DNA of 64,000 bases from contig CAKSEL010000010.1 in NCBI GenBank assembly GCA_934446675.1, forward strand, positions 19,861 through 83,860, read 5' to 3'. A model generated the notes under the pieces. The model did no database searches and was not told the DNA's origin. It worked only from the letters and a program-made list of their open reading frames with translations. Both the position numbers and the translations under genes were made by a program. Positions 1 to 53,802 of this stretch are shown here, one piece after another. Position 1 is the first letter of the stretch, and every line of letters starts with the position of its first letter. This DNA is from an uncultured Eubacteriales bacterium (lineage in GTDB: Bacteria > Bacillota > Clostridia > Oscillospirales > CAG-382).

Positions 1-660
1 ATTCTCCAACTTTTCGACGGCGAAAAAGTTGCACTCTACTAAAGAGCGTAAACAAAAGCCGTTCGCGGCTCAGACGCCGCCGCGAAAGCGTGGCTACGGG
101 AGGATTTCACTCTAAAGAGTGTAAACGCCTACCGCAACTAACTACCCCTCCGAAATTTCAAAAACTCTCGTTTTGCACTTGTCCACATTGCTGTGTTGCG
201 AAATCGCCGCGCGACAGGCGCGCGGATATGGGGTTCTGTACGAAGTCAAACCATTTTGGAAAAAGTGTTATTTTTTATATTCTCCGACAGTCAACAGGAC
301 TCGCTTTTCTGCTCAGCTCGCTTACGCGAGATGACTTTTACAAATGTTAGTTTTTTGTTTCACGGGCGCGGAGTGAAAAATTCGGTTCTGTTTCGCCGGT
401 GCAAAGTTAAATACCGCATAAATTTCGGTTTCTGCGAAACAATTTCACTCACCAAAGTTCCCCATAGCACACAGTTTCCATAGTTTACTCACGCACCTGT
501 TTACATCTGAGTCAGCCGCCTGCCTTTTGGTGGCTGACGGTACAAGCTGGCGGCAGAGAGTATCCCGTAGCCTTTTCCTTATTTAAGGGCTTACTTGTTT
601 TTCTTTGCAGCTTTCTTTTTAAAAAGAAAGCGCGTATTCTTTTTCGGCGTAGTTGTATCT
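1..660 (-). repeat. Mosaic intergenic repeat, copy 1 (minus orientation, cut by window edge)
   Basis: The reverse complement aligns module-for-module with 4682-5348. Modules: A palindrome 610-631, hairpin B allele iii 511-538, hairpin C 317-330, hairpin D 207-225, hairpin E 62-86, F-variant hairpin 8-30. Its 5' end lies just after the stop (679-681) of the minus-strand M23 gene. Confidence 0.9.
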
Positions 661-678
661 ATGTTTCACGTGAAACAT

Positions 679-4681: not shown

Positions 4682-4699
4682 GGGTACGCAAGAATACGC

Positions 4700-4721
4700 G
4701 CTTTCTTTTTAAAAAGAAAGC
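4700..4721 (+). other. Module A: 22-bp perfect palindrome GCTTTCTTTTTAAAAAGAAAGC
   Basis: Identical palindrome at 610-631, 17386-17407, 20539-20560, 22735-22756, 27601-27622, 31915-31936, 43055-43076, 46036-46057 and 52732-52753. It is always followed by TGCAAAGAAAAC. Confidence 0.95.
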
Positions 4722-4789
4722 TGCAAAGAAAACGGTAGCCCTTAATTTAGAAAAAGGCTATGGGATACTCCCTGCCGCCAGCTTGTTCC

Positions 4790-4818
4790 GTCCGCAGTCA
4801 AACAGCAGGACTGCGGAC
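4790..4818 (+). other. Module B hairpin (allele i): GTCCGCAGTC-N9-GACTGCGGAC
   Basis: Perfect 10-bp inverted repeat. The same position in other copies carries allele ii or iii (see findings). Confidence 0.9.
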
Positions 4819-4934
4819 TAAGATTATAAATAATGTGCCGAAGTAAACTATGGAAATTCAGTACAAAGGGTTGCTTTGGAAAGTGAAATTACTTTGCACC
4901 ACCCAAACAACAAACTAACATTTGTAAAAGTCAT

Positions 4935-4948
4935 CTCGCGTAAGCGAG
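4935..4948 (+). other. Module C hairpin: CTCGC-GTAA-GCGAG (GNRA-type loop)
   Basis: 5-bp stem with a GTAA loop, flanked by conserved AAAGTCAT and CTGGGCAGAAAA. Confidence 0.85.
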
Positions 4949-5040
4949 CTGGGCAGAAAAGTGAGTCCTGTTGACTGCGTGATTATATAGAAAATAACAC
5001 TTGCGCCGAATTGGGTTTAACTTCGTACAGAACCCCATAT

Positions 5041-5059
5041 CCGCGCGCCTGTCGCGCGG
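5041..5059 (+). other. Module D hairpin (allele a): CCGCGCG-CCTGT-CGCGCGG
   Basis: 7-bp all-GC stem between conserved CCCCAT and CGATTT. Confidence 0.85.
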
Positions 5060-5179
5060 CGATTTCGCGGCACAGTTTCAGGGACATTGCGAAACGAGGA
5101 TTTTTGAGCTTTCGGGGGCGTATTTGGTTTCGGTGCGCGTTTACACTCTTTAGAGTGAAATCCTCCACGTAGCCGCGCT

Positions 5180-5204
5180 TTCGCTGCGGCGTTTGAGCGG
5201 CGAA
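5180..5204 (+). other. Module E hairpin: TTCGCTGC-GGCGTTTGA-GCGGCGAA, followed by a T-rich tract
   Basis: 8-bp stem with one U.G pair. It is followed by AAAATCTTTTGTTT, which makes it the most terminator-like hairpin inside the element. Confidence 0.8.
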
Positions 5205-5231
5205 AATCTTTTGTTTACACTCTTTAGAGCG

Positions 5232-5256
5232 CGACTTTTTCGATTCCGAAAAGTCG
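5232..5256 (+). other. Module F hairpin: CGACTTTTTCG-ATTC-CGAAAAGTCG (start of a Z unit)
   Basis: The core CTTTTCGATTCCGAAAAG recurs about 19 times in the window (by eye), always followed by GAATAGAGTTGCACATGGAAGTGAAT..CCGTTTCCGCCC or a variant. Confidence 0.9.
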
Positions 5257-5348
5257 GTGTATAGACTTGCACATAGCAGTGAATTATCTCTTTCCGCCCA
5301 AAACAGGCAACAATCACTCCCCCAATGTAGAAGAAAGGAGCAGAACAC

Positions 5349-6719
5349 ATGAAAAAATACCTCAAAAAAATACTCCCCGTACTGTGCTCTGCACTTGTTC
5401 TCTGCGTAAATTTCACGTCCTACGCGTCCTATAATGACGAACGCTTTGAGATATACGTCAATATGAATAATAAGGTCACAAATTCGTATGTCGTGCCTAA
5501 TCTCTACCGCCAGGACGCAGCATATACCTATGTAAAAAGCTTTCCTCTCGTAGTAAGCGGCGGCGTGGAATATGTCCCTATAACCGAGTTCTCGCTCTTT
5601 TACTATATAACCGTAACGTATAGTAAAATCAATGATAATTTCTATATGACAAATACTAAAACCGGTTCGTATCTGTCTTTCGACGTTGAAAATAATATAG
5701 CCGAGTCAAATGACGGCGTTATAACCTCCATGAAAACCAAGCTGTATTATAAAACAAGATATATCCCGGCACGCGACGTTGCGGATATTCTCGGACTTGA
5801 GTGCGAAAGCTATGACGATAACTCGTCGGGTATATACGCTTTCCGCGTAAAGGATTCAAGCGCCGAGCTTTCGTTTGACGCTTTGCTTGAAAAGTATATC
5901 CCGCCTAAAAAACGCGAACTTCCCGATATACCTCTGCCCGAAATCAAATATCCCGACGACGGTAAAAATAATCCCGACGGTAATGATAATAAGGGTAACG
6001 GTTCCGATAATCCGGACGGCTCGAATACAGACTCCGGAAAGCAAGATCCCGATAACGGTAAGAATAATCCGCAGCCCGAACCGGAAGACCCGTATAAGGA
6101 TATAGCCCCGAGACAGATGTTTTTCGTTTATACCGATTTTAACGCCGATTGCGCTTCCGATATAGTAAAACGGTTCTCTTCTTATTCGGAAAACTGTACC
6201 TTTGCCATGACGGAACAGGATATAAAGGATAACCCGGATTTTGTAAGACTTGCCGTGGTGAACCAAAACGGTATCGCACTTGCGGCAGATGATGTGAATA
6301 CCGACGGTACGATAACGGATTCAAAACAGCTCGCAAATGAGCTTGCGGATAAATACGATAAAGCAAATGACGCGCTGTACGCCGCACTTAAACAAAAAAT
6401 AAGACTGTGCGTTGTTCCGGACGGGGTTCTGGCAGCGGCGGATAACGCAGATACACTGTATAATGAGCTTAAAGCGCGCGGATATGCCGCGGTAAAGTTC
6501 AACTGTACCTCTCCCGAAAATTATAACAGAGCCTATAACGTGCTTTCCTCGGTAAGACGTGTAATAACGTCGTATTTTCCTAAGAATACCGCGCAGAAAC
6601 CGGTTCTGAAACTCAGCATGAGCGATAACAGCGCATATTATACCGGACTTGTTCTCGGATTTATGAATGATTACGAGCAGTTTACGACCGGCATACCCGA
6701 TGAAACAATGTTCGGCTGA
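5349..6719 (+). CDS. Secreted hypothetical protein with D/N/G/P-rich linker
   Basis: 456-aa ORF with an N-terminal signal-like segment (MKKYLKKILPVLCSALVLCVNFTSYA) and a low-complexity stretch (PDDGKNNPDGNDNKGNGSDNPDGSNTDSGKQDPDNGKNNPQPEPEDP). SD AAGGAG lies 8 nt upstream. Confidence 0.7.
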   Translation: MKKYLKKILPVLCSALVLCVNFTSYASYNDERFEIYVNMNNKVTNSYVVPNLYRQDAAYTYVKSFPLVVSGGVEYVPITEFSLFYYITVTYSKINDNFYMTNTKTGSYLSFDVENNIAESNDGVITSMKTKLYYKTRYIPARDVADILGLECESYDDNSSGIYAFRVKDSSAELSFDALLEKYIPPKKRELPDIPLPEIKYPDDGKNNPDGNDNKGNGSDNPDGSNTDSGKQDPDNGKNNPQPEPEDPYKDIAPRQMFFVYTDFNADCASDIVKRFSSYSENCTFAMTEQDIKDNPDFVRLAVVNQNGIALAADDVNTDGTITDSKQLANELADKYDKANDALYAALKQKIRLCVVPDGVLAAADNADTLYNELKARGYAAVKFNCTSPENYNRAYNVLSSVRRVITSYFPKNTAQKPVLKLSMSDNSAYYTGLVLGFMNDYEQFTTGIPDETMFG

Positions 6720-12230: not shown

Positions 12231-12257
12231 GAACAGGAGGCGGTGATTTTTGACCGG

Positions 12258-12338
12258 TTTGGGCGGGAAAAGATAATTCACTGCCACTTGCAATTCTATA
12301 CACCGACTTTTCGGAATCGAAAAAGTCGCGCTCTTTAG
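12258..12338 (-). repeat. Mosaic repeat copy 3a: isolated Z unit in reverse orientation
   Basis: The reverse complement reads GCGCGACTTTTTCGATTCCGAAAAGTCGGTGTATAGAATTGCAAGTGGCAGTGAATTATCTTTTCCCGCCCAAA. Hairpin F lies at 12304-12328. Confidence 0.9.
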
Positions 12339-12394
12339 TTTTATGTTTAGTTGGCGAAAGAGTGCAAGTCTGATAAAACTTAATACAAAAATAT

Positions 12395-12433
12395 ACTCTG
12401 TGCATTGTTCTACAACTTTGCACAGAGTTTTTC
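12395..12433 (+). terminator. Rho-independent terminator candidate (thrC), unique sequence
   Basis: ACTCTGTGCA (12395-12404) pairs with TGCACAGAGT (12419-12428): a perfect 10-bp stem with a 14-nt loop, followed by TTTTC. It lies between repeat fragments 3a and 3b. Confidence 0.7.
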
Positions 12434-12439
12434 TATACA

Positions 12440-12995
12440 TAAAAGTAGAATTTGATCCAAGTTTCTTGCCGATAGGCAAGCTGGGCAGAAAAACGTGTCC
12501 TGTTGACTGCGTAATAACTCGAAAAAATTACTTTTTTCACCTAAAATTAAGTTTACGCAGACCGCAGCGTGACATGGCGTAAGAGATAGAGCTGAGATAA
12601 ACAAATTTTACTTAGAAACCAACCCCATCGAGCAGTGCGGAGCATCTGCGAGCGAAAATTTAAAACTTCGGAGGTGCGGGAAAGTTTTACCGACGATAGT
12701 TTGATGTGTGGAAAGGAAGCCGCGCTTTCGCTGCGGCGTTTGAGCGGCGAAAATCTTTTGCGACTTTTTCGATTCCGAAAAGTCGGAAGAATAGAGTTGC
12801 ACATGGAAGTGAATTATTCTTTTTCGCCCAAAACAAGCGTCAGTTAGATAAACACAAAGTATCTTTTCTACTTTTCGATTCCGAAAAGTCGGAGAATAGA
12901 GCTGCACATGGCAGTGAATTAAAATTTCTCGCCCAAAATAAGCAACAGCCAGCCAAGCACAAAACATCTTTCCGCCCAACCTCCCTGCTCTCTTT
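12440..12995 (+). repeat. Mosaic repeat copy 3b: 5'-truncated copy (from module C onward)
   Basis: Hairpin C variant CTTGCCGATAGGCAAG at 12465-12480, then CTGGGCAGAAAA..CCTGTTGACTG, module V, D allele b, S3 spacer, E hairpin and two Z units. Confidence 0.9.
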
Positions 12996-13021: not shown

Positions 13022-13050
13022 TTGACGAAAAAACTAAAAAATAGTATAAT
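13022..13050 (+). promoter_or_regulatory. Sigma-A-type promoter candidate for the lipid-kinase/Fur/DHHW genes
   Basis: TTGACG (13022-13027), a 17-nt spacer, then TATAAT (13045-13050). A second TATAAT lies at 13052-13057, and the sequence is unique, just 3' of repeat copy 3b. Confidence 0.65.
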
Positions 13051-15818: not shown

Positions 15819-15855
15819 ATGAATTGTGGGTTATTTTGGATTGAGTTATGCTTGG

Positions 15856-15990
15856 TTTGGGTGAAAAAAGATAATTCACTGCCACTTGCAAGTCTATTCT
15901 CCAACTTTTCGATTCCGAAAAGCGGAGATACAAAGCTGCACTTTGAAGAATATTTCCCATTTCCGCCCAAACAAGCAACAATCAACCAAA
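15856..15990. repeat. Mosaic repeat copy 4: two Z units head-to-head around one F hairpin
   Basis: TTTGGGTGAAAAAAGATAATTCACTGCCACTTGCAAGTCTATTCTCCAA, then CTTTTCGATTCCGAAAAG (15905-15922), then CGGAGATACAAAGCTGCACTTTGAAGAATATTTCCCATTTCCGCCCAAA. The left arm is a reversed Z and the right arm a forward Z. Confidence 0.85.
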
Positions 15991-15996: not shown

Positions 15997-16156
15997 TTTT
16001 CCACAAATTAACATCGACTTTCCCACAAAATCCACAAAGAGTTATACACATCAAATCCACAGGAAATCAACAGGTTACGCATAAGGTTTTCCATAGGAAA
16101 AAAATTCTGGAATCAAGGCAGAATAAGCACTTCGGGAGTTGTCCACAGTTTCCACA
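15997..16156 (+). promoter_or_regulatory. Cluster of seven DnaA-box-like 9-mers, all in one orientation
   Basis: TTTTCCACA 15997, TTTCCCACA 16019, AAATCCACA 16028, TTATACACA 16042, AAATCCACA 16053, TTGTCCACA 16139, GTTTCCACA 16148. Each has 1-2 mismatches to TTATCCACA. Confidence 0.7.
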
Positions 16157-16180
16157 CCCTCTACTACTACTACTGCTTCC

Positions 16181-16212
16181 TATAAACAATATATATTATA
16201 TTATTTTTGTAT
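16181..16212. other. AT-rich tract (possible unwinding element) preceded by a (CTA)4 microrepeat
   Basis: TATAAACAATATATATTATATTATTTTTGTAT contains 2 G/C in 32 nt. CTACTACTACTAC lies at 16161-16173. Confidence 0.4.
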
Positions 16213-16245
16213 CGGATATAAAGAAAAAAGAAAGGATAGATAAAC

Positions 16246-17358: not shown

Positions 17359-18268
17359 AAACATTTTCGCCGAAGAAGAATACGCGCTTTCTTTTTAAAA
17401 AGAAAGCTGCAAAGAAAACGGGGAACGCGCTTTTCTGAAGAAAAGCTGAGCGCTCTAAAGAGTGTAAACAAAAGACTTTCGTAGCCCTTAAATAAAAATA
17501 AAGCTGTTGGCAACTCTGTGCCGCCAGCTTGTACCGTTCGCAGTCGAACAGCAGGACTGCGAACTCAAATCTAAGCAGGTGCCGAAGTAAACTATGGAAG
17601 TTGTGTACTATTGGTAACTTTGAAAAGTGAAACCCCTTTGCAACAGCGAAATAAAGTAAAAATTTCACTTCGCACCCGCGAAACAAAAACTAACATTTGT
17701 AAAAGTCATCTTGCCGTAGGCAAGCTGGGCAGAAAAATTTGTCCTGTTGACTGTTTGAATATATTAAGAGTAACATTCTTGCCAAAATAGTTTAACTTCG
17801 TACAGAACCCCATATCCGCGCGTCAGTCGCGCGGCGATTTTGCCGTAAGTTACACGGACGTACCGTAGTAGCAAGGCGGTCACGCTTGTGAGAATAATAG
17901 AGGTGAGAAAAGCTGTGTTTCGGGCAAAATCCTTCCGTCGGGGGATTGTCAAGGGGCGAGTAGTCCCTTGAACGGCTTTTCGACCACTTTTCGCCGCCGA
18001 AAAGTGCATATTTAAAGTTGCACTTTGAAGAATATAACCCGTTTCAGCTCAAAATAATCTGAAGTCAGCCACACGCAAGTGTAGTTCGCTTTCGCGGCGG
18101 CGTTTGAGCCGCGAAAATCTTTTGTCATTTATCCTCGCAGGGGACTTTTTCGATTCCGAAAAGTGAGAGAATAGAGTTGCAATTAGAAGTGAGTTATCCT
18201 TTTTAACCCAAAATAAGTAACACTCAGCCAAACAAAAAGTATTAAAAAATTTTGAAAAAAGAATATAG
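17359..18268 (+). repeat. Mosaic intergenic repeat, copy 5 (910 bp)
   Basis: A palindrome 17386-17407, a 60-bp insertion at 17421-17480, hairpin B allele ii 17536-17564, hairpin C allele ii 17710-17724, D allele a variant, S2-like spacer and two Z units. Confidence 0.93.
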
Positions 18269-20506: not shown

Positions 20507-21285
20507 GGACGCGAAGGGGAACGCGCTGAAGGTTACGCGCTTTCTTTTTAAAAAGAAAGCTGCAAAGAAAACGGTAGCCCCTAATTTAGAAAAGAATTGT
20601 TGGATACTCTCTGCCTCCGGCTTGTACCGTCAGCCACCAAAAGTCAGGCGGCTGACTTAAATGTGAACAATGGTGCCGAAGCAAGCTATGGAAATTCAGT
20701 ACAAATGGTTGCTTTGAAAAGTGAAATAATTACGCACCGACGAAACACAAAACTAATACTTGTAAAAGTCATCTTGCCGTAGGCAAGATGGGCAGAAAAA
20801 TGAGTCCTGTTGACTGTTGGAGAATATAAAAAATAACACTTTTTCCGAAATGGTTTGAGTTTGTACAAACCCCATTATCGAGCAGTGCGGAGCATCTGCG
20901 AGCGATTTTGCCGTAGGTTGTGTGGACGCACCGTAGTAACAAGTGGTCACTTTGGTAAAAGCGGTTGAGGGGTAGAAATCCGAGTTCAAGGCAAAATCCC
21001 CCACGTAGCCACGCTTTCGCGGCGGCGTTTGAGCCGCGAAAATCTTTTGTAACTTTTTCGATTCCGAAAAGTTAGAGAATAGAGTTGCACATGGCAGTGA
21101 ATAACCCGTTTCCGCTCAAACAGGCAAAAATCAGCCAAACAAAAAACATCTTTCAGCTTTTCTACTTAGAAAAGCGTCAGTATAAAGTCGCACTTTGAAA
21201 AAAGTAACCCGTTTCCGCCCAAAAAAAAGTAAGTAAAATTTAAATATTTACCCAAAATTTAAGAAGAAGAAAAGGAGAATTTTCC
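20507..21285 (+). repeat. Mosaic intergenic repeat, copy 6 (779 bp)
   Basis: A palindrome 20539-20560, hairpin B allele iii 20629-20656, C allele ii, D allele b, S2, E hairpin 21016-21040, F hairpins at 21051-21073 and 21156-21175. Confidence 0.93.
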
Positions 21286-22695: not shown

Positions 22696-23565
22696 AGAAT
22701 ACGAAGGGGTACGAAGGGGTACGCAAGAATACGCGCTTTCTTTTTAAAAAGAAAGCTGCAAAGAAAACGGTAGCCCTTAAATAAGAAAAAAGCTGTGGGA
22801 TATTCTCTGCCGCCAGCTTGTTCCGTCCGCAGTCGAACAGCAGGACTGCGGACTAAGATGTAAACAGGTGCATGAGTAAACTATGGAAACTGTGTGCTAA
22901 GGGTAGCTTTGGAAAGTGAAATTGCTCCGCACTATCTAAACATAAAACTAAAATTCAGCAAAGTCATCTCGCGTAAGCGAGCTGGGCAGAAAAATAAGTC
23001 CTGTTGACTGTGTAATAACAGTAAAAATTAACATTTGCGCACCCAAAATAAAGTTTACGCAGACCGCGGCGTGACATGACGTAAAACTTGGCATTATGTC
23101 AACCAATCCATGTTCAGATACCAACCCCATCGAGCAGTGCGGAGCATCTGCGAGCGAAGATTGCAAACTTCGGAGGCGCGGAAAAAGCTTTACCGACGAT
23201 AGTTAGATGTGTGGAGAAGAAGCCGCGCTTTCGCTGCGGCGTTTGAGCGGCGAAAATCTTTTGTCATTTATCCTCGCAGGGGACTTTTTCGATTCCGAAA
23301 AGTGAGAGAATAGAGTTGCAGGTGGAAGTGGATAATCCGTTTTCGCCAAAAATAAGTGAAAATCAGCCACACGCAAGTGTAGTTCGCTTTCGCTGCGGCG
23401 TTTGAGCGGCGAAAATCTTTTGTTTACACTCTTTAGAGCGCCCGTCTTTTCGATTCCGAAAAGCGGAGATATAGGGTTGCACATGGAAGTGAATAATCAA
23501 TGTGGCACAAAAATATTCATTCCTCCTAAACTAATCAAAAATCACCCCAAAAAGGAATAAAAAAT
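22696..23565 (+). repeat. Mosaic intergenic repeat, copy 7 (870 bp)
   Basis: Four tandem TACG decamers (22697-22736), A palindrome 22735-22756, hairpin B allele i 22825-22853, C, V, D allele b, S3 and two E+F+Z units. Confidence 0.93.
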
Positions 23566-27569: not shown

Positions 27570-28282
27570 TTTTTGTCCCGAAGGGGTACGAGGAATACGC
27601 GCTTTCTTTTTAAAAAGAAAGCTGCAAAGAAAACGGTAGCCCTTAAATAAGAATAGAATTGTGGGATACTCCCTGCCGCCAGCTTGTTCCGTCCGCAGTC
27701 AAACAGCAGGACTGCGGACTCAGATATAAATAAGGTGCCGAAGTAAACTATGGAAATTGTGTACGGACGATAACTTTGAAAAGTGAAATTGCTCCGCACC
27801 AACAAAACAAAAAACTAACATCTGTAAAAGTCATCTCGCGCAAGCGAGCTGGGCAGAAAAACGAGTCCTGTTGACTGTGAAATAGCTCAAAAAAATTACT
27901 TTTTTGCACCCAAAATAAAGTTTACGCAGACCGCAGCGTGACATGGCATAAAAATCCGGAATTATGTCAACTAAACCGTGTTTAGATACCAACCCCATCG
28001 AGCAGTGCGGAGCATCTGCGAGCGATGATAGAGAATTTCGGAGGTGCGCGGAGGCTTTACCGACAATAGTTTGATGTGTGGAAACATAGCCACGCTTTCG
28101 CGGCGGCGTTTGAGCCGCGAAAATCTTTTGTTTACACTCTTTAGAGCGCGACTTTTTCGATTCCGAAAAGTCGGAGAATAAAGCTGCAAGTGGCAGTGAA
28201 TAATCCGTTTCCTCCTAAACTTAAGAAACAATCAGCCCAAATAATCAGTACCCTGAAAAAAGTAGAGAAAGGAAGATACCCG
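27570..28282 (+). repeat. Mosaic intergenic repeat, copy 8 (713 bp)
   Basis: A palindrome 27601-27622, hairpin B allele i 27691-27719, hairpin C with GCAA loop 27835-27848, V, D allele b, S3 and one E+F+Z unit. It ends GAAAGGAAGATACCCG just before TTG 28283. Confidence 0.93.
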
Positions 28283-31895: not shown

Positions 31896-32730
31896 GGAGT
31901 ACGCAGGAGAACGCGCTTTCTTTTTAAAAAGAAAGCTGCAAAGAAAACAATAGCCCCTAATTTAGAAAAGAATTGTGGGATACTCTCTGCCGCCAGCTTG
32001 TACCGTCCGCAGTCAAACAGCAGGACTGCGGACTAAGATGTAAACAGGTGCGTGAGTAAACTATGGAAATTGTGTACTAATGGCAGCTTTGGAAAGTGAA
32101 ATAATTACGCACAAACGAAATAAATCCCAAATTTCACTTTGCACCCACGAAACAAAAAACTAAAATTCAGCAAAGTCATCTCGCGTAAGCGAGCTGGGCA
32201 GAAAAACGAGCCCTGTTGACTGCAAAATAACTTGAGAAAATTACTTTTTTGCACTCGAAATAAAGTTTACGCAGACCGTAACGTGACATGGCATAAAAGT
32301 TTGGCATTATGTCAACTAAACCGTGTTTAGATACCAACCCCATCGAGCAGTGCGGAGCATCTGCGAGCGATTTCGCCGTAGGTTACGTGGACGCACCGTA
32401 GTAACAAGTGGTCGTTTTGGTAAGGGTTTTGGAGGGGAAGAATGTGCGTTTAGGGCGAAATCCTCCACGTAGCCACGCTTTCGCGGCGGCGTTTGAGCCG
32501 CGAAAATCTTTTGTTACCTTTTCGATTCCGAAAAGTAAGCATATAAAGTCGCACTTTGAAGAAAGTAATCCGTTTCCGCCCAAACCAAGCAAAAATAAGC
32601 CAAACGTAAAACATCTTTTCACTTTTCGATTCCGAAAAGAGGAGATATAAGGTTGCAATTGGAAGTGAATGTCCCGCTTCAGCCCAAAATAATCAAAAAA
32701 AGAAAATAGAAGAAGAAAAGAGGAGTCCCC
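31896..32730 (+). repeat. Mosaic intergenic repeat, copy 9 (835 bp)
   Basis: A palindrome 31915-31936, hairpin B allele i 32005-32033, C, V, D allele b, S2, E and two Z units. It ends AAGAGGAGTCCCC just before GTG 32731. Confidence 0.93.
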
Positions 32731-33756
32731 GTGAAGTTCTCGGTAGTAGGAATCCAGCACCCGCATATATACGGAATGACAAGTGAACTTGTCGCACATG
32801 GCGCAGAACTCGTCTCGGCGTATGATAGCGATAAGATAGCACTTGACGCGTTCGTAAAAAAGTACCCGGGCGTAAAGCCGGTAAGATGCGAAGAAGAAAT
32901 ACTTGAAGATAAAAATGTTCAGCTCGTGGCAGGCGCCGCCGTTACGTCCGAAAGAGCCGATATAGGTATACGCACAATGAACGCAGGTAAAGATTATTTT
33001 ACCGATAAAGGTCCGTTTACGTCGTTTGAACAGCTTGAAAGAGTAAAGCAGACAGTAAAGCAGACCGGAAAAAAGTATATGGTTTGTTATAGCGAAAGAC
33101 TTCAGAATTCAAGCGCTGAAATGGCAGGAATGATGATAAAGCGCGGAGATATAGGAAAAGTCGTTCAGGTCGTAAGTATGGGACCGCACAGACTTAACGC
33201 AAAGTCAAGACCGGAGTGGTTCTGGCAAAAAGAAAAGTTCGGCGGTATACTCGATGATATATGCTCGCATCAGTTTGAACAGTTTTTGTATTTCACAGGC
33301 GCAGATAAGGCAAGCGTGGTTTCGGCAAGAGTCGAAAACTTCGCACACCCCGAGTACCCCGAATTTGAAGATTTCGGTGAAGCAAGCCTTGTCGCCGATA
33401 ACGGGGCGTCGGGATACGTAAAGGTCGATTGGTTCACACCCGACGGACTTGATACGTGGGGCGACGGCAGAGCTTTTGTAATAGGCACGGACGGATATAT
33501 CGAACTCAGAAAAACCATAGATATATGCGGAAGACCGGGTGCAAATCACCTGTTTGTGACTACAAATAAGCAAAAAACAACGTATGTTGACGCAAATTCT
33601 TTCGGACACCCGTTCTTTGACGCGTTTATAAAGGACTGCCAAGAACGTACCGAAAACGCAATGACTCAGGAACACGTCTGGGAGAGCGCAAGACTTACGC
33701 TTGAAGCTCAGCAAAAAGCCGATGAATTCAGAAAAAAACTAAAAAATATGCTTTAA
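32731..33756 (+). CDS. Gfo/Idh/MocA-family oxidoreductase
   Basis: 341 aa. Family-level resemblance by eye (N-terminal Rossmann-like half, C-terminal alpha/beta domain). GTG start. Confidence 0.8.
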   Translation: MKFSVVGIQHPHIYGMTSELVAHGAELVSAYDSDKIALDAFVKKYPGVKPVRCEEEILEDKNVQLVAGAAVTSERADIGIRTMNAGKDYFTDKGPFTSFEQLERVKQTVKQTGKKYMVCYSERLQNSSAEMAGMMIKRGDIGKVVQVVSMGPHRLNAKSRPEWFWQKEKFGGILDDICSHQFEQFLYFTGADKASVVSARVENFAHPEYPEFEDFGEASLVADNGASGYVKVDWFTPDGLDTWGDGRAFVIGTDGYIELRKTIDICGRPGANHLFVTTNKQKTTYVDANSFGHPFFDAFIKDCQERTENAMTQEHVWESARLTLEAQQKADEFRKKLKNML

Positions 33757-37241: not shown

Positions 37242-37640
37242 AGGGAGTTCCTCTTTTCTTCTTCTTTTCTTTGATTTATGTTGGGCTTGTTTTCTTTTGT
37301 TTTGGGCGGAAATTGGTTAGTCACTGCCATGTGCAAGCGTATACCTCCGCTTTTCGGAATCGAAAAGACGGGCAAAAGATTTTCGCGGCTCAAACGCCGC
37401 CGCGAAAGCGTGGCTTTATTTTCCACACAAAATTGTATCGTCGGAAAAACATCTTCGCGCCCCCGAAGTCTGCAATCTTCGCTCGCAGACGCTCCGCGCT
37501 GCTCGATATGGGGTTCTGTACAAAGCTAAACTATTTCGGGGAAAGTGTTATTTTTTATATACTCATGCAGTCAACAGGACACACTTTTACGACCAGCTCG
37601 CTGTCGCGAGATGACTACGGCTGAATTTTACTTTTGTGTT
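37242..37640 (-). repeat. Mosaic repeat copy 10a: 5'-truncated copy in minus orientation, 3' end at the polA start
   Basis: On the reverse strand: hairpin C (GACA loop) 37597-37610, D allele b, S3, E hairpin, F hairpin 37350-37367, Z core, then SD and the polA GTG. Confidence 0.9.
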
Positions 37641-37680
37641 TGGTAAACTAAACTTGCAAGTTCGCTCTAAAACGTAATAT

Positions 37681-38156
37681 ACCGCACCAAATTGCACTCA
37701 CAAAGACGTGACACGGCAGAAAAACAGTATTATGTCAACCAAGTCATTGCTAAGAAACCAACCCCATCGAGCAGTGCGAAGCATCTGCGAGCGATTTTGC
37801 CGTAGGTTATGTGGACGCACCGTAGTAACAAGTGGTCACTTTGGAAAAAGCGTTTGAGGGGTAAAAAGTCATGTTTAGGGCAAAATCCTCCACGTAGCCA
37901 CGCTTTCGCGGCGGCGTTTGAGCCGCGAACGGCTTTTGTTTACGCTCTTTAGAGTGCAACTTTTTCGCCGTCGAAAAGTTGGAGAATAGAGCTGCACATG
38001 GAAGTGGATTATCTTTTTAGCCCCAAATAAGCAACACTCAGCCAACCGCAGAACATCTTTCAGCTTTTCGATTCCGAAAAGCGTCGGTATAAAGTTGCAC
38101 TTTGAAGAAAATTCCCCGTTTCCGCCCAAATCGACCTCAAAATATCTTCAATCTTC
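37681..38156 (+). repeat. Mosaic repeat copy 10b: 5'-truncated copy in plus orientation
   Basis: Starts in module V, then D allele b, S2, E, F-variant hairpin 37957-37981, Z, and a second F+Z. It ends at the stop codon (38157-38159) of the minus-strand HD gene. Confidence 0.9.
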
Positions 38157-38744
38157 TCAGTTCAGCGAATCCAGCGACATTTCAAACGCACCTGCAAAGT
38201 GCTCCATAAAATACTTAAGCTCCGGACATGACTGCATGTGCTCGTCAAGCGCGCGTTTGGTTGAGTTGAGAGCGTCGCGGAACTCGGAGTTTCCGTTTTT
38301 GTACTCGTCAACGCATTTGAGATACGCGCATAGCTTGTCCGCAGCCTTTACAATGCGCTTTAAGTCGGCGCTTTGCTCAAATTCAAGAATTTCTGCATAG
38401 TTTTCTTTCAGATCTTCCGGAAGTTTTGACAGCGCGTTCTCCACCGCGTTCTTTTCAAGCGATTTGTAACTTTCGCGTATGGTGTCGTTAAAATATTTGA
38501 CCGGCGTCGGCAGATCTCCCGTGAATATCTCGCTCATGTCGTGGTACAGGGCGCAGAGCGCGGTCTTTCCGCAGTCGTAATTCTTGCCGAATACAGTGTT
38601 GCCTATCTCGGCAAGCGCGTGCGCAAGCATGGAACACTGTGCGCTGTGCTCAAGTAAGTTTTCGCTCGTGAGATTTCTCATAAGTCCCCAGCGGTTTATG
38701 TATTTCATTCTGAATGCAAGCGCAAAAAATGAGTAGTTTTCCAT
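38157..38744 (-). CDS. HD-domain 5'-deoxynucleotidase (YfbR-like)
   Basis: EHSAQCSMLAHAL and LYHDMSEIFTGDLPTPVK HD motifs. 195 aa. Confidence 0.88.
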   Translation of the reverse strand: MENYSFFALAFRMKYINRWGLMRNLTSENLLEHSAQCSMLAHALAEIGNTVFGKNYDCGKTALCALYHDMSEIFTGDLPTPVKYFNDTIRESYKSLEKNAVENALSKLPEDLKENYAEILEFEQSADLKRIVKAADKLCAYLKCVDEYKNGNSEFRDALNSTKRALDEHMQSCPELKYFMEHFAGAFEMSLDSLN

Positions 38745-38831: not shown

Positions 38832-39053
38832 TAATTATATCATAAACCATACCCGAAAACAACACGAAAACCGAAAATTTTACACCGCACGGAGCGCCGC
38901 GGCGGCAAAAAACAAAAATAATATGTTAATTTACATAAATTGATATTTACTTAACGGGAAAATAAGTGTATAATTATACTGATATTTTATATTGCTGGAG
39001 TGTGCCCCGATAAGAACGCACGCAAAAAACTCCGCAAAAAGGAAAGGCGAAAC

Positions 39054-43022: not shown

Positions 43023-43399
43023 GGGTACGAAGGAGTACGCGCCGAAGAATACGCGCTTTCTTTTTAAAAAGAAAGCTGCAAAGAAAACAATAGCCCTTAA
43101 TTTAGAAAAAGGCTACGGGATACTCTGTGCCGCCAGCTTGTGCCGTCAGCCACCAAAAGTCGGGCGGCTGACTCAAATCTAAGCAGGTGCGTGAGTAAAC
43201 TATGGAAATTATGTGCTGACGGTGACTTTGGAAAGTGAAACTCTTTTGTCATTTATCCTCGCAGAGGACTTTTTCGATTCCGAAAAGTGAGTGTAGAAAG
43301 CTGCAAGCAGAAGTGAATTTCCCGTTTCCGCCAAAAATTAAGATATATTTCTCAAATTTTTAAGATACATTTTTCCCAAAAAAGAAAGGAAGAGTCCCG
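43023..43399 (+). repeat. Mosaic intergenic repeat, copy 11 (377 bp, internal deletion)
   Basis: A palindrome 43055-43076, hairpin B allele iii 43145-43172, and the 5' half of P3, joined directly to the linker TCATTTATCCTCGCAGAGG plus one F+Z unit. It ends GAAAGGAAGAGTCCCG just before ATG 43400. Confidence 0.92.
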
Positions 43400-46017: not shown

Positions 46018-46820
46018 GAGTACGCAAGAATACGCGCTTTCTTTTTAAAAAGAAAGCTGCAAAGAAAACAGTAGCCCTTAATTTAGAAAAGAATTGCGGA
46101 ATACTCTCTGCCGCCAGCTTGTACCGTTCGCAGTCGAACAGCAGGACTGCGAACTCAGATGTGAGCAGGTGCTGAAGTAAACTATGGAAATTTAGTACAA
46201 AGGGCAACTTTGGAAAGTGATATTACTTCGCACCACCCAAACATAAAACTAAAATTCAGCAAAGTCATCTCGCGTAAGCGAGTTGGGCGGAAAAACGAGT
46301 CCTGTTGACTGCATAATAACGCATAAGAATTGCATATTTGAGCCTTAAATATAGTTTACGCAGACCGCAACGTGACATGGCATAAAAGTTGAACTGTGTT
46401 AACCAATTTGAGCGTAGACACCAGCCCCATCGAGCAGTGCGGAGCATCTGCGAGCGATTTTGCCGTAGGTTACGTGGACGCACCGTAGTAACAAGTGGTC
46501 ACTTTAGAAAAATCGTTTGAGGGGTAGAAAGTCATGTTCAGGGCAAAATCCTCCACGTAGCCACGCTTTCGCTGCGGCGTTTGAGCGGCGAAAATCTTTT
46601 GCGACTTTTTCGATTCCGAAAAGTCGGTGAATAGACTTGCAAGTGACAGTGGATAATCCTTTTCCGCCTAAAATAATCAAAATTTGATTAAACATAAAAC
46701 ATCTTTCAGCTTTTCTCCGTAGAAAAGCGTCAGTATAGGGTTGCACATGGAAGTGGATTATCCGTTTCCGCCCAAACCAAGAAACAATCAGCCAAGAAAA
46801 AAGAAAGGAAGTCTCTCACC
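46018..46820 (+). repeat. Mosaic intergenic repeat, copy 12 (803 bp)
   Basis: A palindrome 46036-46057, hairpin B allele ii 46126-46154, C, V, D allele b, S2, E (U.G allele) and two Z units. It ends GAAAGGAAGTCTCTCACC just before GTG 46821. Confidence 0.93.
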
Positions 46821-47030
46821 GTGGAACTTAAAGCCTTCGGCGTAGGCGATACGCTGAATATGAAAAAACCGCACGCGTGTGATTCAAAATCAAAAAAGAT
46901 GCTCGTGCTCATGGCAGGCAGTGACGTAAAAGTGCGCTGTGAGGGCTGCGGACGTGAGATGATCCTGCCGAGAGTTAAACTCGAAAGAAGTATAAAAAGC
47001 GTTACCCGAAAGGAAGACATGAATGTTTGA
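46821..47030 (+). CDS. DUF951-family small protein
   Basis: 69 aa. [37 protein letters not shown] matches the DUF951 pattern by eye. GTG start. Confidence 0.75.
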
Positions 47031-50421: not shown

Positions 50422-51292
50422 AGTACGCAGGAATACGCGCTTTATAGGGGTACGCGCTTTTCTGAAGAAAAGCTGAGCGCTCTAAAGAGTGTAAACAAAA
50501 GACTTTCGTAGCCCTTAAATAAGAAAAGAATTGTGGGATACTCCCTGCCGCCAGCTTGTACCGTTCGCAGTCAAACAGCAGGACTGCGAACTCAGATGTA
50601 AACAGGTGCGTGAGTAAACTATGGAAATTCAGTACAAAGGGTAGCTTTTGAAAGTGAAATTACTCCGCACCTACGAAACAACAAACTAACATTTGTAAAA
50701 GTCATCTTGCCGTAGGCAAGCTGGTCGGAAAAGTTAGTCCTGTTGACTGTGAAATAACAGAAAAAGTTAACACTTGCGCACCTCAAATAAAGTTTACGCA
50801 GACCGCAACGTGACATGGCGTAAAACTTGGCATTATGTCAACCAACTTGTGTGTAGATGCCAGCCCCATCCGCGCGCCTGTCGCGCGGCGATTTTGCCGT
50901 AAGCTACACGGACGTACCATAGTAGCAAGGCGGTCGCATTTGTAAGGATAATAAAGGTGAAAAAAGCCATGTTCAGGGCAAAATCCTCCACGTAGCCACG
51001 CTTTCGCGGCGGCGTTTGAGCCGCGAAAATCTTTTGCCTTTTATCCTCGCAGGGGACTTTTTCGATTCCGAAAAGAGGGGGAATAGGGTTGCACATGGCA
51101 GTGAATTATCTTTTCTCGCCAAAATAAGCAACAGCTAGCCAAACACCAAACATCTTTCAGCTTTTCTCCGTAGAAAAGCGTCAGTACAAAGTTGCACTTT
51201 GAAGAATATTTCCCGTTTCCGCCCAAATAGGCAACAATCAACCAATCAAAAACTAAAAAATTATATAGAATCTCAGAAAGAAGATGTAAAAT
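50422..51292 (+). repeat. Mosaic intergenic repeat, copy 13 (871 bp)
   Basis: TACG decamers. The A palindrome is replaced by the insertion variant (hairpin 50456-50473, inverted 27-mer 50475-50501). Then hairpin B allele ii 50563-50591, C allele ii, V, D allele a, S2, E and two Z units. Confidence 0.93.
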
Positions 51293-52702
51293 ATGCCGGA
51301 AAAGAAGTCAAAAGGAGAAGAGCTGAAAGAAAAGCTCTTTATGAAACAGCCCGACGCATATGAAAAGCTGTCCGAAAAGGAAATTGAAAAGGCTTATAAA
51401 TATTGCGACGGATATAAGAAATTCTTAGGTGAATGTAAAACCGAAAGAGAATCCGTGGATTTTGCGGTAAAGTACCTTGAAAAGAACGGATTTGAAAAAT
51501 TTGAGTACGGTAAAAAATATCAGCCGGGCGATAAAATCTATTTTAATAATAGAGGTAAGTCCGTCTATATAATCACCGTCGGTAAACATGGTCTTGAAAA
51601 CGGACTTCATATCGCAGCCGCACACGTTGATAGCCCCAGAATTGACTTGAAACAGCACCCGCTTTATGAGGACGGCGGATTTGCTTTCTTTAAAACGCAT
51701 TATTACGGCGGAATTAAGAAATTCCAGTGGGTAACAGTGCCTCTTGCACTTCACGGAGTTGTCGTTAAGGCTGACGGCGAGTGCGTAAAGATAAGTATAG
51801 GCGAGGACGAGAGCGATCCCGTGTTCTATATAACCGATCTTCTTCCGCATCTCGGTAAGGATCAGGCAACAAAGCCTATGGGCAGCGTGTTTAACGGAGA
51901 AATGCTCAATGTTCTCTGCGGCAGCCGTCCGTATAATGATGAAAAAGTGTCGGAAAAGATTAAGCTTAATGTGCTCAATCTGCTCTATGAAAAGTACGGA
52001 ATTACAGAGGCTGACCTCGTTTCGAGCGAACTTTGCCTTGTTCCGTCGCAGAAACCGCGCGATGTCGGATTCGATAGAAGTCTTGTCGGCTCTTACGGTC
52101 ATGACGATAGGGTTTGCGCATATCCTATCATGACTGCGGCAGTAGATTGCTCAAAGCAGATTCCCGAGCATACTCAGGTTACTATCTTCGCGGATAAAGA
52201 GGAGATAGGCAGCGAGGGAAATACGGGTATGCAGTCCTTCGCGTTCGTCGATGTGCTTAATGAAATTTGTATAAACAGGGGCGAAAATCCCAGAGTTATG
52301 TTCGCAAACTCAAAGTGCCTGTCAGCAGACGTAAACGCTTGCTTTGATCCGAATTATGCAGAGGCTTATGAAACCAGAAACTCGGCTTATATTAATAAGG
52401 GTGTGTCGGTTACTAAGTTTACCGGGGCGCGCGGTAAGTCCGAAACTAATGACGCTCATGCGGAATATGTCGCATATGTCAGAAACCTCCTCGATAAGGC
52501 AGGCGTCGTGTGGCAGATGGGTGAACTCGGTAAGGTAGATCAGGGCGGCGGCGGTACTGTCGCTATGTACCTCGCTAAACTTAATATTGATGTTATTGAT
52601 GTCGGCGTCCCCGTTATTTCTATGCACGCTCCTTATGAAATCGTCTCTAAAACCGATGTCTATTCCGCTTATAAGGCTTTCGAGGCTTTCTTTAAAGACT
52701 AA
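51293..52702 (+). CDS. M18-family aminopeptidase
   Basis: AAAHVDSPRIDLK and GHDDRVCAY metal-ligand motifs. 469 aa. Confidence 0.88.
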   Translation: MPEKKSKGEELKEKLFMKQPDAYEKLSEKEIEKAYKYCDGYKKFLGECKTERESVDFAVKYLEKNGFEKFEYGKKYQPGDKIYFNNRGKSVYIITVGKHGLENGLHIAAAHVDSPRIDLKQHPLYEDGGFAFFKTHYYGGIKKFQWVTVPLALHGVVVKADGECVKISIGEDESDPVFYITDLLPHLGKDQATKPMGSVFNGEMLNVLCGSRPYNDEKVSEKIKLNVLNLLYEKYGITEADLVSSELCLVPSQKPRDVGFDRSLVGSYGHDDRVCAYPIMTAAVDCSKQIPEHTQVTIFADKEEIGSEGNTGMQSFAFVDVLNEICINRGENPRVMFANSKCLSADVNACFDPNYAEAYETRNSAYINKGVSVTKFTGARGKSETNDAHAEYVAYVRNLLDKAGVVWQMGELGKVDQGGGGTVAMYLAKLNIDVIDVGVPVISMHAPYEIVSKTDVYSAYKAFEAFFKD

Positions 52703-53802
52703 GGAATAGATAGGGATTACGAGGGATACGCGCTTTCTTTTTAAAAAGAAAGCTGCAAAGAAAACGGTAGTCCTTAATTTAGAAAAGAATTGTGGGATAC
52801 TCTCTGCCGCCAGCTTGTACCGTCCGCAGTCGAACAGCAGGACTGCGGACTAAGATAAAAACAGGTGCCAAAGCAAGCTATGGAAATTGTGTGCTGAAGG
52901 TGGCTTTGGTGAGTGAAACCGTTTCGCAACAATGAAATAAAGTAAAAATTTCACTTTGCGCCGACGAAACAGAACCGAATTTTCGCTCCGCACCGACGGA
53001 AACAATAAACTAAAATTCAGCAAAGTCATCTCGCGTAAGCGAGCTGGGTAGAAAAATGAGTCCTGTTGACTGCGAAATAACTTAAAAAAATTACTTTTTC
53101 GCACCTAAAATAAAGTTTACGCAGACCGCAGCGTGACATGGTACAAGAACTCGGCATTATGTCGACCAATTTGTGTTTAGAAACCAGCCCCATCCGCGCG
53201 CCTGTCGCGCGGCGATTTCGCGGCACAGTTTCAGGGACAGTGCGAAATGTGAGTTTTTGAAATTTCGGAGGCGTAAATGGTTTTGGTGCGCGTTTACACT
53301 CTTTAGAGTGAAATCCTCCACGTAGCCACGCTTTCGCGGCGGCGATTGAGCCGCGAACGGCTTTTGTTTACGCTCTTTAGAGTGCAACTTTTTCGCCGTC
53401 GAAAAGTTGGAGAATAGAGTTTCAAGTGGAAGTGAGTAATCCGTTCCCGCCAAAAACAGGTGAAAATCAGCCATACGCAAGTTTAGTTCGCTTTCGCGGC
53501 GGCGTTTGAGCCGCGAAAATCTTTTGTCATTTATCCTCGCAGGGGACTTTTTCGATTCCGAAAAGTGAGGAGAATAGACTTGCAAGTGGAAGTGAATTTC
53601 CCGTTTCCACCCAAAATAAGCAATACTCAGCCAAACAAAAAGTATCTTTTCGCTTTTCGATTCCGAAAAGTCGGTGAATAGAGTTGCACATGGAAGTGGA
53701 TTATCATTTTCCGCCCCAAAATAAGCAACACTCAGCCAAACCCGCAAACCTGTCCTGTGCAAAGAGAAAAAAGATATTAAAAGTTAGAAAGGAAGATCCC
53801 CG
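52703..53802 (+). repeat. Mosaic intergenic repeat, copy 14 (1100 bp, longest)
   Basis: A palindrome 52732-52753, hairpin B allele i 52822-52850, extended P3, C, V, D allele a, S1, then three Z units (F hairpins 53385-53409, 53546-53566, 53653-53670) with two E hairpins. It ends GAAAGGAAGATCCCCG just before GTG 53803. Confidence 0.93.

Follow-up and report, generated by a model that had tools for sequence, protein, structure and literature searches.

What is the short, A/U-rich hairpin that recurs in the spacers of this stretch of DNA from an uncultured gut Clostridia species (the window, 64,000 nucleotides [nt] in all), and whom does it serve? An earlier note, made from the letters alone, had singled out positions 5232-5256 (CGACTTTTTCGATTCCGAAAAGTCG) as one copy of a conserved hairpin and had thought of a recognition site for a protein or an RNase. 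Such a hairpin does exist, and within a larger modular repeat it is the part conserved best. We read it as one module, the stem-loop, of a family of mosaic repeats between genes, not described before and specific to one lineage, whose nearest counterparts in kind are REP/BIME and the pneumococcal BOX element. The hairpin is very probably a module of a repeat that has proliferated, rather than a conserved regulatory site of the host. More tentatively, we suggest that it is a cis-acting DNA structure at which the repeat is copied and recombined.

The hairpin and its unit

The hairpin, here called F, is an A/U-rich stem-loop of the sequence TTTTCG-ATTC-CGAAAA, with variants. The exact 18-mer CTTTTCGATTCCGAAAAG occurs eight times in the window, and 11 more copies, that at 5232-5256 among them, carry T as the first base (TTTTTCG...); the shared 17-mer, TTTTCGATTCCGAAAAG, is found 19 times. 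The earlier count of about 19 canonical copies agrees with the 17-mer and not with the 18-mer. Every position that had been cited does bear the hairpin (5232-5256, 12304-12328 on the minus strand, 15905-15922, 21051-21073, 37350-37367 on the minus strand, 53546-53566, and 53653-53670), and the loop and stem variants that had been listed (CCGT, CCGC, ACTT, and CTTTTCT-CCGT) are all present. When loop variants are included, 26 sites have the form TTTTC-N6-GAAAA with a complementary inner pair. One supposed variant has to be set apart: the palindrome GCTTTTC-TGAA-GAAAAGC exists in both of its reported copies, but these belong to P1', a form of the palindrome P1 that follows stop codons (see below), where they stand next to an inverted copy of CTCTTTAGAG and lack the F body.

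In dinucleotide-preserving shuffles of the window, the exact 18-mer averaged 0.00 copies against eight observed, and copies with up to three mismatches averaged 0.15 against 20 observed. With about 78% of the window coding, none of the 26 hairpins lies inside a gene; all are intergenic. The earlier note had held that equal frequency in coding sequence would reduce the motif to a trivial low-complexity palindrome, and this objection falls away, the motif not being found there. Should the Z core of that note be the CTCTTTAGAG motif, about 7 of the 26 hairpins carry it directly ahead of them.

None of the hairpins in the window stands free. Each has a conserved body of about 75 nt next to it, on one side or on both, and hairpin and body together make up the F unit (about 75 to 90 nt). 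The body has the consensus GNGGNG-[TA]A[TC]A[GA][GA]G-[TC][TC]GCA-...-CCGTTTCCGCCCAAA, with an A/C-rich tail after it; its positions WAYARRG-YYGCA, in which one A is invariant, are conserved yet unpaired. Units occur singly, in tandem at a spacing of 103 to 105 nt, as tandems with the terminator-like module T described below (T-F, about 160 nt), or back to back on one hairpin (15906). The back-to-back pairs, about 5% of F units, form imperfect palindromes of about 130 to 190 nt; such a pair, for example 15847-15975, folds as one long hairpin (z = -3.7).

A coding role for the F unit, or for antisense open reading frames (ORFs) over the repeats, was ruled out by the spacing of 103 to 105 nt and by frame-breaking indels, and also by two ORFs, one after thrC and one at 15819, whose frames over the unit differ. 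Mechanically called antisense ORFs of 110 to 200 amino acids (aa) do run over the repeats (4983-5348, 12608-12979, 32383-32799, and 53157-53762, all on the minus strand), and their frame relative to the units is inconsistent.

Mosaic complexes between genes

Twelve long intergenic regions of the window align over most of their length and keep a constant order of modules: the palindrome P1, then M1, M2, and M3, the terminator-like T, an optional 20-nt insert, and one to three F units, which form the outer, gene-proximal end. These complexes measure 0.4 to 1.1 kb, and direct-repeat families recur at 10 to 15 sites. Profile searches with nhmmer detected 13 M1, 13 M2, 13 M3, 16 T, and 26 F modules, which cover 13.3% of the window and 15.8% of positions 1-53802. 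There are 13 complexes in 54 kb, and positions 53803-64000 hold no repeat module and have short spacers only. The genes between the complexes are housekeeping genes, such as guaB, thrC, dnaN, a gyrA/parC-like gene, dxr, polA, secA, prfA, and galK.

P1 is a 46-nt block (AAGAATACGCGCTTTCTTTTTAAAAAGAAAGCTGCAAAGAAAACGG) that contains the palindrome GCGCTTTCTTTTTAAAAAGAAAGCTGC and begins a few bases past the stop codon. It is 89 to 100% identical at nine sites (4690-4735, 17376, 20529, 22725, 27591, 31905, 43045, 46026, and 52722) and folds as an A/U-rich palindrome of 11 to 13 bp without a U-tract (z = -2.9). The T module, which precedes the first F hairpin in most arrays, fits the definition of an intrinsic (Rho-independent) terminator, with a 9-bp G+C-rich stem followed by AUCUUUUG; it has a G-C/U-G allele pair that is able to pair on the unit strand only, and its plus-strand fold is the better one. 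The F stem, which is A/U-rich and followed by GNGGAGAAUAG, does not fit that definition.

No Rfam covariance model matched the window at the gathering score, and a search of one whole complex at E ≤ 10 returned sub-threshold noise only (E ≥ 2). An integron, a group IIC intron, a T-box, and a riboswitch were each rejected as an account of the whole complex, given the housekeeping neighbors, the lack of an Rfam match, and the alternative module variants.

Confinement to one lineage

We scanned 185,579 species genomes, one per species, and found the 18-mer together with the F body in just one, the human-gut metagenome-assembled genome "uncultured Clostridiales bacterium UMGS1387," which is 95.7% identical to the window over thrC. 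Other matches to the 18-mer were due to chance or fell within one conserved coding 18-mer. Many UMGS1387 contigs end at the F hairpin or repeat, as is typical of assembly breaks. A search with a degenerate pattern recovered more than 100 further true units from four human-gut metagenome assemblies; added to the 26 sites of the window, they bear out the earlier statement that the hairpin is repeated in large numbers. Phage and plasmid collections gave no match to a whole complex, and the seven matches to the 17-mer among viral contigs, none with the F body, are taken as chance. The literature searched on UMGS1387 and on interspersed mosaic repeats in Clostridia offered nothing specific.

The relatives examined have the same genes without the repeat. 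Their contigs (L189 to L194) keep the gene order of the window from secA to the histidine phosphatase gene (SecA...RF1-Sua5-CoaE-SLT-M18-GalK in common), with spacers of 29 to 64 nt at places where the window has 378 to 1,101 nt, and in these spacers no module was detected even at an nhmmer E value of ≤10. The M18 aminopeptidase gene (51293-52702), which lies between two complexes, has its nearest non-conspecific homologues at 76 to 82% identity. Since relatives with the same gene order have short spacers and no module, the complexes are, by this comparison of sequences, insertions between stop codon and ribosome-binding site, peculiar to a single species-level lineage among the uncultured gut Clostridia. 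A hairpin that heads a unit, a unit that ends a lineage-confined mosaic, and relatives without the modules are together in keeping with the proliferation of a repeat element and not with an ancient site of host regulation.

One of these relatives, L190 (78% identity in the M18 peptidase), which has none of the modules, carries an insert of its own of about 500 nt at 5893-6390 in a syntenic spacer. The insert has two tandem copies of another repeat, containing ACAAGTCATCGCCG, which recalls the AAAGTCATCTCGCG with which M2 starts; this repeat may belong to a family that is distantly related or independent.

The hairpin as a joint between strains

In strains 93 to 96% identical to the window, neither the positions nor the order of the complexes is changed; what varies is which module variants are present and how many T-F copies there are. 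In megablast alignments to these strains, similarity breaks off at 5259, 15906, 15921, 28150, 32622/32623, 46733, and 51160, each of them no more than a few bases from the edge of a hairpin. At the thrC and yfbR-like sites, residue-level alignments are near-identical as far as the hairpin and unrelated past it. A single hairpin of the window, at 15906, corresponds to two hairpins 670 nt apart at locus L177, with inverted modules between them. Divergent F units on one common hairpin are found in the window and at loci L097, L082/L168/L179, and L170, and inverted blocks of modules meet at the hairpin. The ends of similarity, the gain or loss of 670 nt from hairpin to hairpin, and the inverted modules make the hairpin the joint of the mosaic, the place at which, over the evolution of these strains, it was cut, joined, inverted, and resized.

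Conservation of the structure

Across 55 aligned units, 99.7% of the cells of the 7-bp core are paired, in agreement with the conserved A/U-rich stem-loop of the earlier note. Its remark that the inner pair changes with both arms altered was correct as well: the pair is G-C in 49 of these units and U-A in 6, and the change is never one-sided. Several assemblies together supply 124 unique units; about 94 of them have G-C as the inner pair, 27 have T-A, 2 have some other complementary pair, and in 2 the pair is clearly broken. The T-A form is seen with six different loops and in several upstream contexts.

Most copies lengthen the stem by 3 to 10 pairs (GCGAC/GTCG, CAAC/GTTG, TAAC/GTTA, TTAC/GTAA, CCCAC/GTGGG, or CCGC/GCGG), often with a one-base pyrimidine bulge in the 5' arm. 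Native pairs of flanks fold slightly better than chimeric ones (-10.26 versus -9.50 kcal/mol; p=0.003). Covariation of the outer stem is weak but significant; the difference in folding being small, much of the extension is owed to flanks that are rich in T on the left and in G on the right. When the hairpin is folded as a single sequence with 16 nt on each side, the unit strand gives stabler structures than the complement (-12.15 versus -10.46 kcal/mol; Wilcoxon p=3e-10), with 184 G-U pairs versus 62; minimum free energy (MFE) stems of 14 to 18 pairs are common. RNAalifold finds no consensus structure in the F unit past the 7-bp core, and its comparison of strands (-13.6 plus, -17.0 minus) is not decisive for F, the T module alone being decisive. 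All this supports a hairpin in single-stranded nucleic acid, with a moderate, not decisive strand bias.

A proposed DNA structure for copying, and what speaks against it

We imagine that this palindrome of 16 to 18 nt is kept nearly invariant as a cis-acting structure for copying or recombining the repeat and that it would act as a DNA hairpin or cruciform. It might serve a dedicated enzyme (a recombinase or transposase with its gene elsewhere in the genome), or template switching during replication together with microhomology recombination. Because it is a palindrome, it would fold in any transcript that crosses it, in either direction, and effects on mRNA processing or stability would then likely be side effects or secondary uses.

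A number of observations weigh against such a role. No gene for a recombinase, transposase, integrase, or RAYT was seen among about 40 window proteins scanned against Pfam, and tblastn with an IS200 TnpA query, a weak test, found no match in 877 kb of lineage DNA. No target-site duplication is visible when three filled sites are compared with the empty sites of relatives. The complexes are co-located in strains 4 to 7% apart, which implies low current mobility. The ending of similarity at the hairpin could simply reflect the longest invariant stretch. Covariation in the core rests on one pair and may go back to a single inherited event: of the seven core pairs, four never vary, two vary one-sidedly (C/U opposite G), and the inner pair alone varies two-sidedly. 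The folds on the unit strand, stabler by a mean of 1.7 kcal/mol and with three times the G-U pairs, are equally compatible with a role as RNA. Finally, wherever a gene lies within 150 nt of the P1/M1 end, that end comes after the stop codon of a co-oriented gene (61 of 61 cases); this suggests a tie to transcription for which a model at the DNA level alone has no account.

The F end shows no such rule. Past it, the next gene is co-oriented in 24 and convergent in 12 of 36 complete complexes; thus, the upstream gene sets the orientation of the complex, and F faces whatever follows. Counting gene-adjacent units at all loci, 36 lie at gene 5' ends (mean, 62.7 bits) and 44 at gene 3' ends (mean, 63.0 bits), an equal conservation that argues against a role tied to the downstream gene. 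The units of the window that face gene ends (12248-12325, 15847-15923, and 38063-38136) have their hairpin 92 to 103 nt from the stop codon, and the last hairpin before a start codon lies 102 to 131 nt upstream of it.

Alternative explanations

A role at the level of RNA is possible, if on balance doubtful. Here the extended stem, about 15 to 20 bp between a T-rich upstream flank, ATCTTTT(C/G), and a G-rich downstream one, GGAGAAT/GGGNGTAT, would be an RNase III-type processing site or a 5' or 3' stabilizing stem-loop of a neighboring gene, as for REP, ERIC, BOX, and Correia elements. The stabler folds of the unit strand, its G-U pairs, and the frequent MFE stems of 14 to 18 pairs all favor this, as does the adjacent T module, which pairs and folds better on the same strand. 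The position of the complexes behind a co-oriented stop codon, in 61 of 61 cases, makes cotranscription with the upstream gene probable; the unit upstream of polA is oriented by the gene and not by replication, and the divergent pair folds with z = -3.7. But the RNAalifold consensus is limited to the core, with a strand comparison that does not decide for F, and the G-U excess may be one of composition, with a U-tract on one side and the G-rich body on the other. The hairpin also lies downstream of a terminator-like module and may often stay untranscribed, and units stand at gene 3' ends as often as at 5' ends.

Less probable still is a reading that joins several of these features. It takes the complex as an orientation-locked "intergenic cassette" colonizing the operon spacers of one gut Clostridia species, with the P1 palindrome at one end, an RNA gene of about 350 to 400 nt inside, and F pointing outward, either as a hairpin for a recombinase of single-stranded DNA or as the 5' stem-loop of a portable promoter. 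Compact operons would in this way be rewired into separately terminated and restarted units. The internal RNA gene would have an invariant -10-like element (TA[AG][AC]AT), a GNRA-looped 5' hairpin, and T as its terminator.

These elements were noted in the modules themselves. The -10-like hexamer stands at the start of M2 (46227-46255, 32138-32166, and 4893-4921), with T1, A2, A5, and T6 invariant in 25 copies and TATAAT in two. About 10 nt after it comes a hairpin, CTCGC-GNRA-GCGAG, which covaries with CTTGCC-GTA-GGCAAG, and the T terminator lies about 330 to 400 nt beyond that hairpin. Because hexamer, hairpin, and terminator stand in series, each complex may have its own small transcription unit from the start of M2 to T. 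In the inverted double complexes, two M2 starts stand back to back.

That F itself is a portable promoter or leader is unlikely. Under this explanation F would supply start signals, with the palindrome as operator, UP-like element, -35 region, or 5'-terminal stem-loop of the transcript. Its appeal comes from location: in most complexes F alone stands between the T module and the ribosome-binding site, and the complexes split arrays that are compact and operon-like in relatives, including upstream of the essential gene prfA. Since T is terminator-like, transcription of downstream genes, prfA included, must pass T or restart after it. The distance of 102 to 131 nt from the last hairpin to start codons, the resemblance of tandem and back-to-back layouts to tandem and divergent promoters, and the conserved unpaired positions of the body, with their invariant A, are all in keeping with a promoter. 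In three or four regions there is even a TTGAGC-17-TACACT match (11.5 bits) across the T loop and the 20-nt insert upstream of the hairpin, though this match, TTGAGC-17-TAC(A/G)CT in general form, occurs only where the insert is present.

However, the best sigma-A weight-matrix match inside F scores 6 to 8 bits, which is coding background (5.9 to 13.5 bits in random 800-nt coding windows), compared with 11.8 and 15.6 bits for true repeat-free promoters of the window. The gene at 13084 has a canonical promoter downstream of its own F units. Of the 80 gene-adjacent units, 44 face the 3' end of a convergent gene, with no loss of conservation; the gene past the F end is convergent in a third of the complete complexes; and a stem with complementary flanks is unnecessary for a promoter. 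Inspection of the alignment by eye showed spacings that fit none of the sigma-54, sigma-H, extended -10, UP-element, or MerR-type readings of the unit. The two near-consensus sigma-A promoters outside the repeats (13022-13050 and 38946-38974; TTGACG-17-TATAAT and TTTACT-17-TATAAT) indicate that the organism uses ordinary promoters where the repeat is absent.

We consider it very improbable that the hairpin is part of a nut-like antitermination signal, in which a boxA-like GCTCTTTA within TTTAC(A/G)CTCTTTAGAG and a boxB-like hairpin would let polymerase resist termination at the terminators of the complex. The exact 8-mer GCTCTTTA or the close ACTCTTTA, a motif that we take to resemble the Escherichia coli rrn boxA, does lie 8 to 12 nt upstream of about 7 of the 26 hairpins. 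Most hairpins, though, lack it (CTCTTTAGAG is immediately upstream in only about 7 of 26), the motif, a small palindrome in its own right (C(A/G)CTC-TTTA-GAG(T/C)G), also occurs inverted beside P1', the loop is neither GNRA-like nor boxB-like, and the resemblance was spotted after many motifs had been viewed. A trivial low-complexity palindrome or an assembly artifact can be dismissed: the stem is a simple T-run and A-run, and unrelated genomes and viral contigs do contain isolated 17- and 18-mers, through chance or within coding sequence, but shuffles yield none where 8 to 20 are observed, every copy is intergenic, a conserved body of about 75 nt accompanies each copy in the window, and units recur in independent assemblies.

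Other features of the region

Two more observations concern the beginning of the complexes. Between the stop codon and P1 (22696-22735, 43023-43050, and 20507-20535) there are one to three degenerate tandem copies, of about 11 nt, of GGGGTACG(C)AA / GGAGTACGCGC, their number varying by site. A hairpin in M1 (4760-4830 and other copies; columns 121-149 of the module alignment) has the compensated alleles CCGCAGTC/GACTGCGG, CAGCCACC/GGCGGCTG, TCGCAGTC/GACTGCGA, and CCGACACC/GGCGTCGG, with four pairs changed on both sides in 6 to 12 of 28 sequences.

Two gene calls touch the repeat. The first possible start of the aldehyde dehydrogenase ORF, GTG 28190, is inside the F unit at 28152-28225, and translation probably starts farther downstream. 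A short ORF (46820-47025), under the 100-aa cutoff of the ORF list, lies between prfA and the F unit at 46709-46785 and matches in position the DUF951 gene of 69 to 71 aa upstream of prfA in relatives L189 to L191.

Upstream of dnaN, positions 16000-16245 contain DnaA-box-like 9-mers (TTATACACA, ATCCACAAA, ATCCACAGG, and TTTCCACA) and an AT-rich stretch (aacaatatatattatattatttttgtat). Cumulative GC skew turns at about 4 to 6 kb, and to the left of about 3 kb the genes lie on the minus strand. The segment looks like the replication origin, without an adjacent dnaA in the window. Long contigs of related assemblies have far fewer units per kb than the window; repeat density seems regionally uneven and highest near the putative origin.

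If our reading is true, the proliferation of this repeat is of unusual scale for a bacterium, with about 16% of the origin-proximal 54 kb made up of modules and with insertions of 0.4 to 1.1 kb, some of them ahead of essential genes, in gene arrays that every relative examined has in compact, operon-like form. The lineage would be a natural experiment on how far large structured insertions, some of them carrying terminator-like modules, are tolerated between cotranscribed genes, and on the machinery that spreads them. There are also practical consequences. These repeats break short-read assemblies, so that genomes of the lineage will be fragmented (the M18 peptidase gene is found alone on a 1.5-kb contig), and spurious antisense ORFs of 110 to 200 aa would be called across them.

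Table 1. Positions of complexes, F units, T modules, and variant hairpins in the window
Feature	Position	Strand	Remarks
Mosaic complex	1..678	-	Downstream of minus-strand M23 peptidase gene
Complex P1-M1-M2-M3-T-F	4682..5320	+	Between guaB (IMPDH) and gene at 5349
Complex, inverted F unit then M2-M3-T-F-F	12231..12980	.	
Complex P1-P1'-M1-M2-M3-T-F-T-F	17359..18235	+	
Complex P1-M1-M2-M3-T-F-F	20507..21240	+	
Complex P1-M1-M2-M3-T-F-T-F	22696..23530	+	
Complex P1-M1-M2-M3-T-F	27570..28240	+	
Complex P1-M1-M2-M3-T-F-F	31896..32700	+	
Inverted double complex	37242..38150	.	F-T-M3-M2 minus (toward polA), back to back with M3-T-F-F plus
Short complex P1-M1-F	43023..43345	+	
Complex P1-M1-M2-M3-T-F-F	46018..46790	+	
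Complex P1'-M1-M2-M3-T-F-F	50422..51240	+	In place of relatives' 31-34 nt spacer
Complex P1-M1-M2-M3-T-F-T-F-F	52703..53735	+	In place of relatives' 29-55 nt spacer
F hairpin, loop CCGT	11..26	-	Window edge; body falls outside window
F unit, copy flagged earlier	5235..5312	+	Hairpin 5237-5252, loop ATTC; 97 nt upstream of ATG 5349; nhmmer 73.4 bits
F unit	12248..12325	-	Faces 3' end of thrC (stop 12230)
F unit, tandem pair member 1	12764..12840	+	
F unit, tandem pair member 2	12871..12946	+	Canonical sigma-A promoter 13022-13050 comes after
F unit	15847..15923	-	Hairpin 15906-15921 common to unit 15905..15975; faces stop codon 15818
F unit, other half of divergent pair	15905..15975	+	Upstream of oriC-like region and dnaN
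F unit, loop CCGC	17987..18060	+	
F unit	18145..18221	+	Upstream of gyrA/parC-like gene (18269)
F unit	21053..21125	+	
F unit, CTTTTCT-ACTT-AGAAAAG hairpin	21156..21226	+	Inner pair U-A
F unit	23284..23357	+	
F unit	23446..23518	+	Upstream of dxr (23566)
F unit	28152..28225	+	Overlaps mechanical GTG start 28190 of aldehyde dehydrogenase ORF
F unit	32517..32593	+	
F unit	32622..32697	+	Similarity to other strains begins exactly at hairpin
F unit	37296..37367	-	Upstream of polA (minus-strand gene); orientation that of the gene, not of replication
F unit, loop CCGT	37960..38035	+	
F unit	38063..38136	+	Faces 3' end of convergent yfbR-like gene (38157-38744, minus)
F unit in short complex	43269..43340	+	M1, then F only
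F unit	46605..46681	+	
F unit, CTTTTCT-CCGT-AGAAAAG hairpin	46709..46785	+	Upstream of DUF951-like ORF and prfA
F unit	51057..51131	+	
F unit, CTTTTCT-CCGT-AGAAAAG hairpin	51160..51232	+	Upstream of M18 aminopeptidase gene (51293)
F unit, loop CCGT	53388..53462	+	
F unit	53547..53624	+	
F unit	53652..53729	+	Upstream of galK (53803)
T module	5159..5214	+	Stem TTTCGC(G/T)GC / GC(C/G)GCGAAA, 9-nt loop, then ATCTTTTG
Other T modules	52-106 (-), 12715-12760, 17928-17980, 18087-18125, 20995-21050, 23218-23264, 23385-23422, 28084-28131		
Other T modules, continued	32459-32514, 37373-37416 (-), 37884-37939, 46547-46601, 50982-51036, 53312-53367, 53489-53527		
Hairpin pattern, CCGT loop	37962-37977, 53390-53405; 11-26 (minus)		
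Hairpin pattern, CCGC loop	17988-18003		
Hairpin pattern, CTTTTCT-ACTT-AGAAAAG	21157-21174		
Hairpin pattern, CTTTTCT-CCGT-AGAAAAG	46710-46727, 51161-51178		
GCTTTTC-TGAA-GAAAAGC palindrome	17429-17446; second copy 50456-50473	+ (first copy)	P1' variant, no F unit

Comparison with known repeat systems

The F hairpin is like the subterminal hairpins of IS200/IS605 elements and like attC sites in being strand biased, in having a bulged base, and in marking recombination junctions, and the complexes share with attC a place behind the stop codon of co-oriented genes. Unlike these systems, it comes with no Y1 transposase or integron integrase among the roughly 40 window proteins and with no R''/R' core sites. 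Integron attC sites proper do not fit, since the flanking genes (dnaN, gyrA-like, polA, secA, and prfA) are housekeeping genes that are syntenic in repeat-free relatives, and there are no cassettes. Nor are the complexes miniature inverted-repeat transposable elements (MITEs): their ends, P1 and F, are unlike each other, no target-site duplication is seen when filled sites are set against the empty ones of relatives, and only the rare F-F pairs are palindromic.

ERIC/IRU and the Correia elements of Neisseria are substrates of RNase III or RNase E and carry promoter-like sequences. The back-to-back pair at 15847-15975 is like them in being an imperfect palindrome that forms one long hairpin. 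Most F units, however, are single and attached to a larger complex, and they lack defined terminal inverted repeats with a TA duplication.

REP and BIME elements are mobilized by RAYT tyrosine transposases and affect mRNA stability and termination. As described for Enterobacteria and Pseudomonas, they share with the repeat of the window a short, imperfect, bulged palindrome in many strictly extragenic copies that form mosaics with other motifs, often right after stop codons, in both orientations and in inverted pairs. There are also differences. There is no sequence similarity, the host belongs to the Clostridia, no RAYT gene was seen in the window, and in place of the GTAG-type 5' tetranucleotide of REP the 5' flanks are variable (CGAC, CAAC, CCAC, CAGC, and others). 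The mosaic is also far larger than a BIME (up to 1.1 kb), with a fixed module order and an orientation locked to the upstream gene.

In the account given in PMC3049150, the BOX element of Streptococcus pneumoniae, considered there with RUP and SPRITE, is modular, with a variable number of modules and extensive predicted secondary structure. The same account confines it to one species and its closest relative and interprets it as parasitic, slowly transposing, and cotranscribed with neighboring genes (PMC3049150). The family described here is likewise modular, structured, and lineage confined, an analogy of architecture only, the sequences being unrelated. BOX has an A-Bn-C design of about 100 to 600 nt, and boxA-boxB(n)-boxC modules were not found in the window family, which differs from it in having at least six module types, a terminator-like one included, in carrying its variable module, F, at one end, and in a much higher local density. 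By itself, the hairpin is an ordinary feature of REP-, BIME-, and BOX-like elements.

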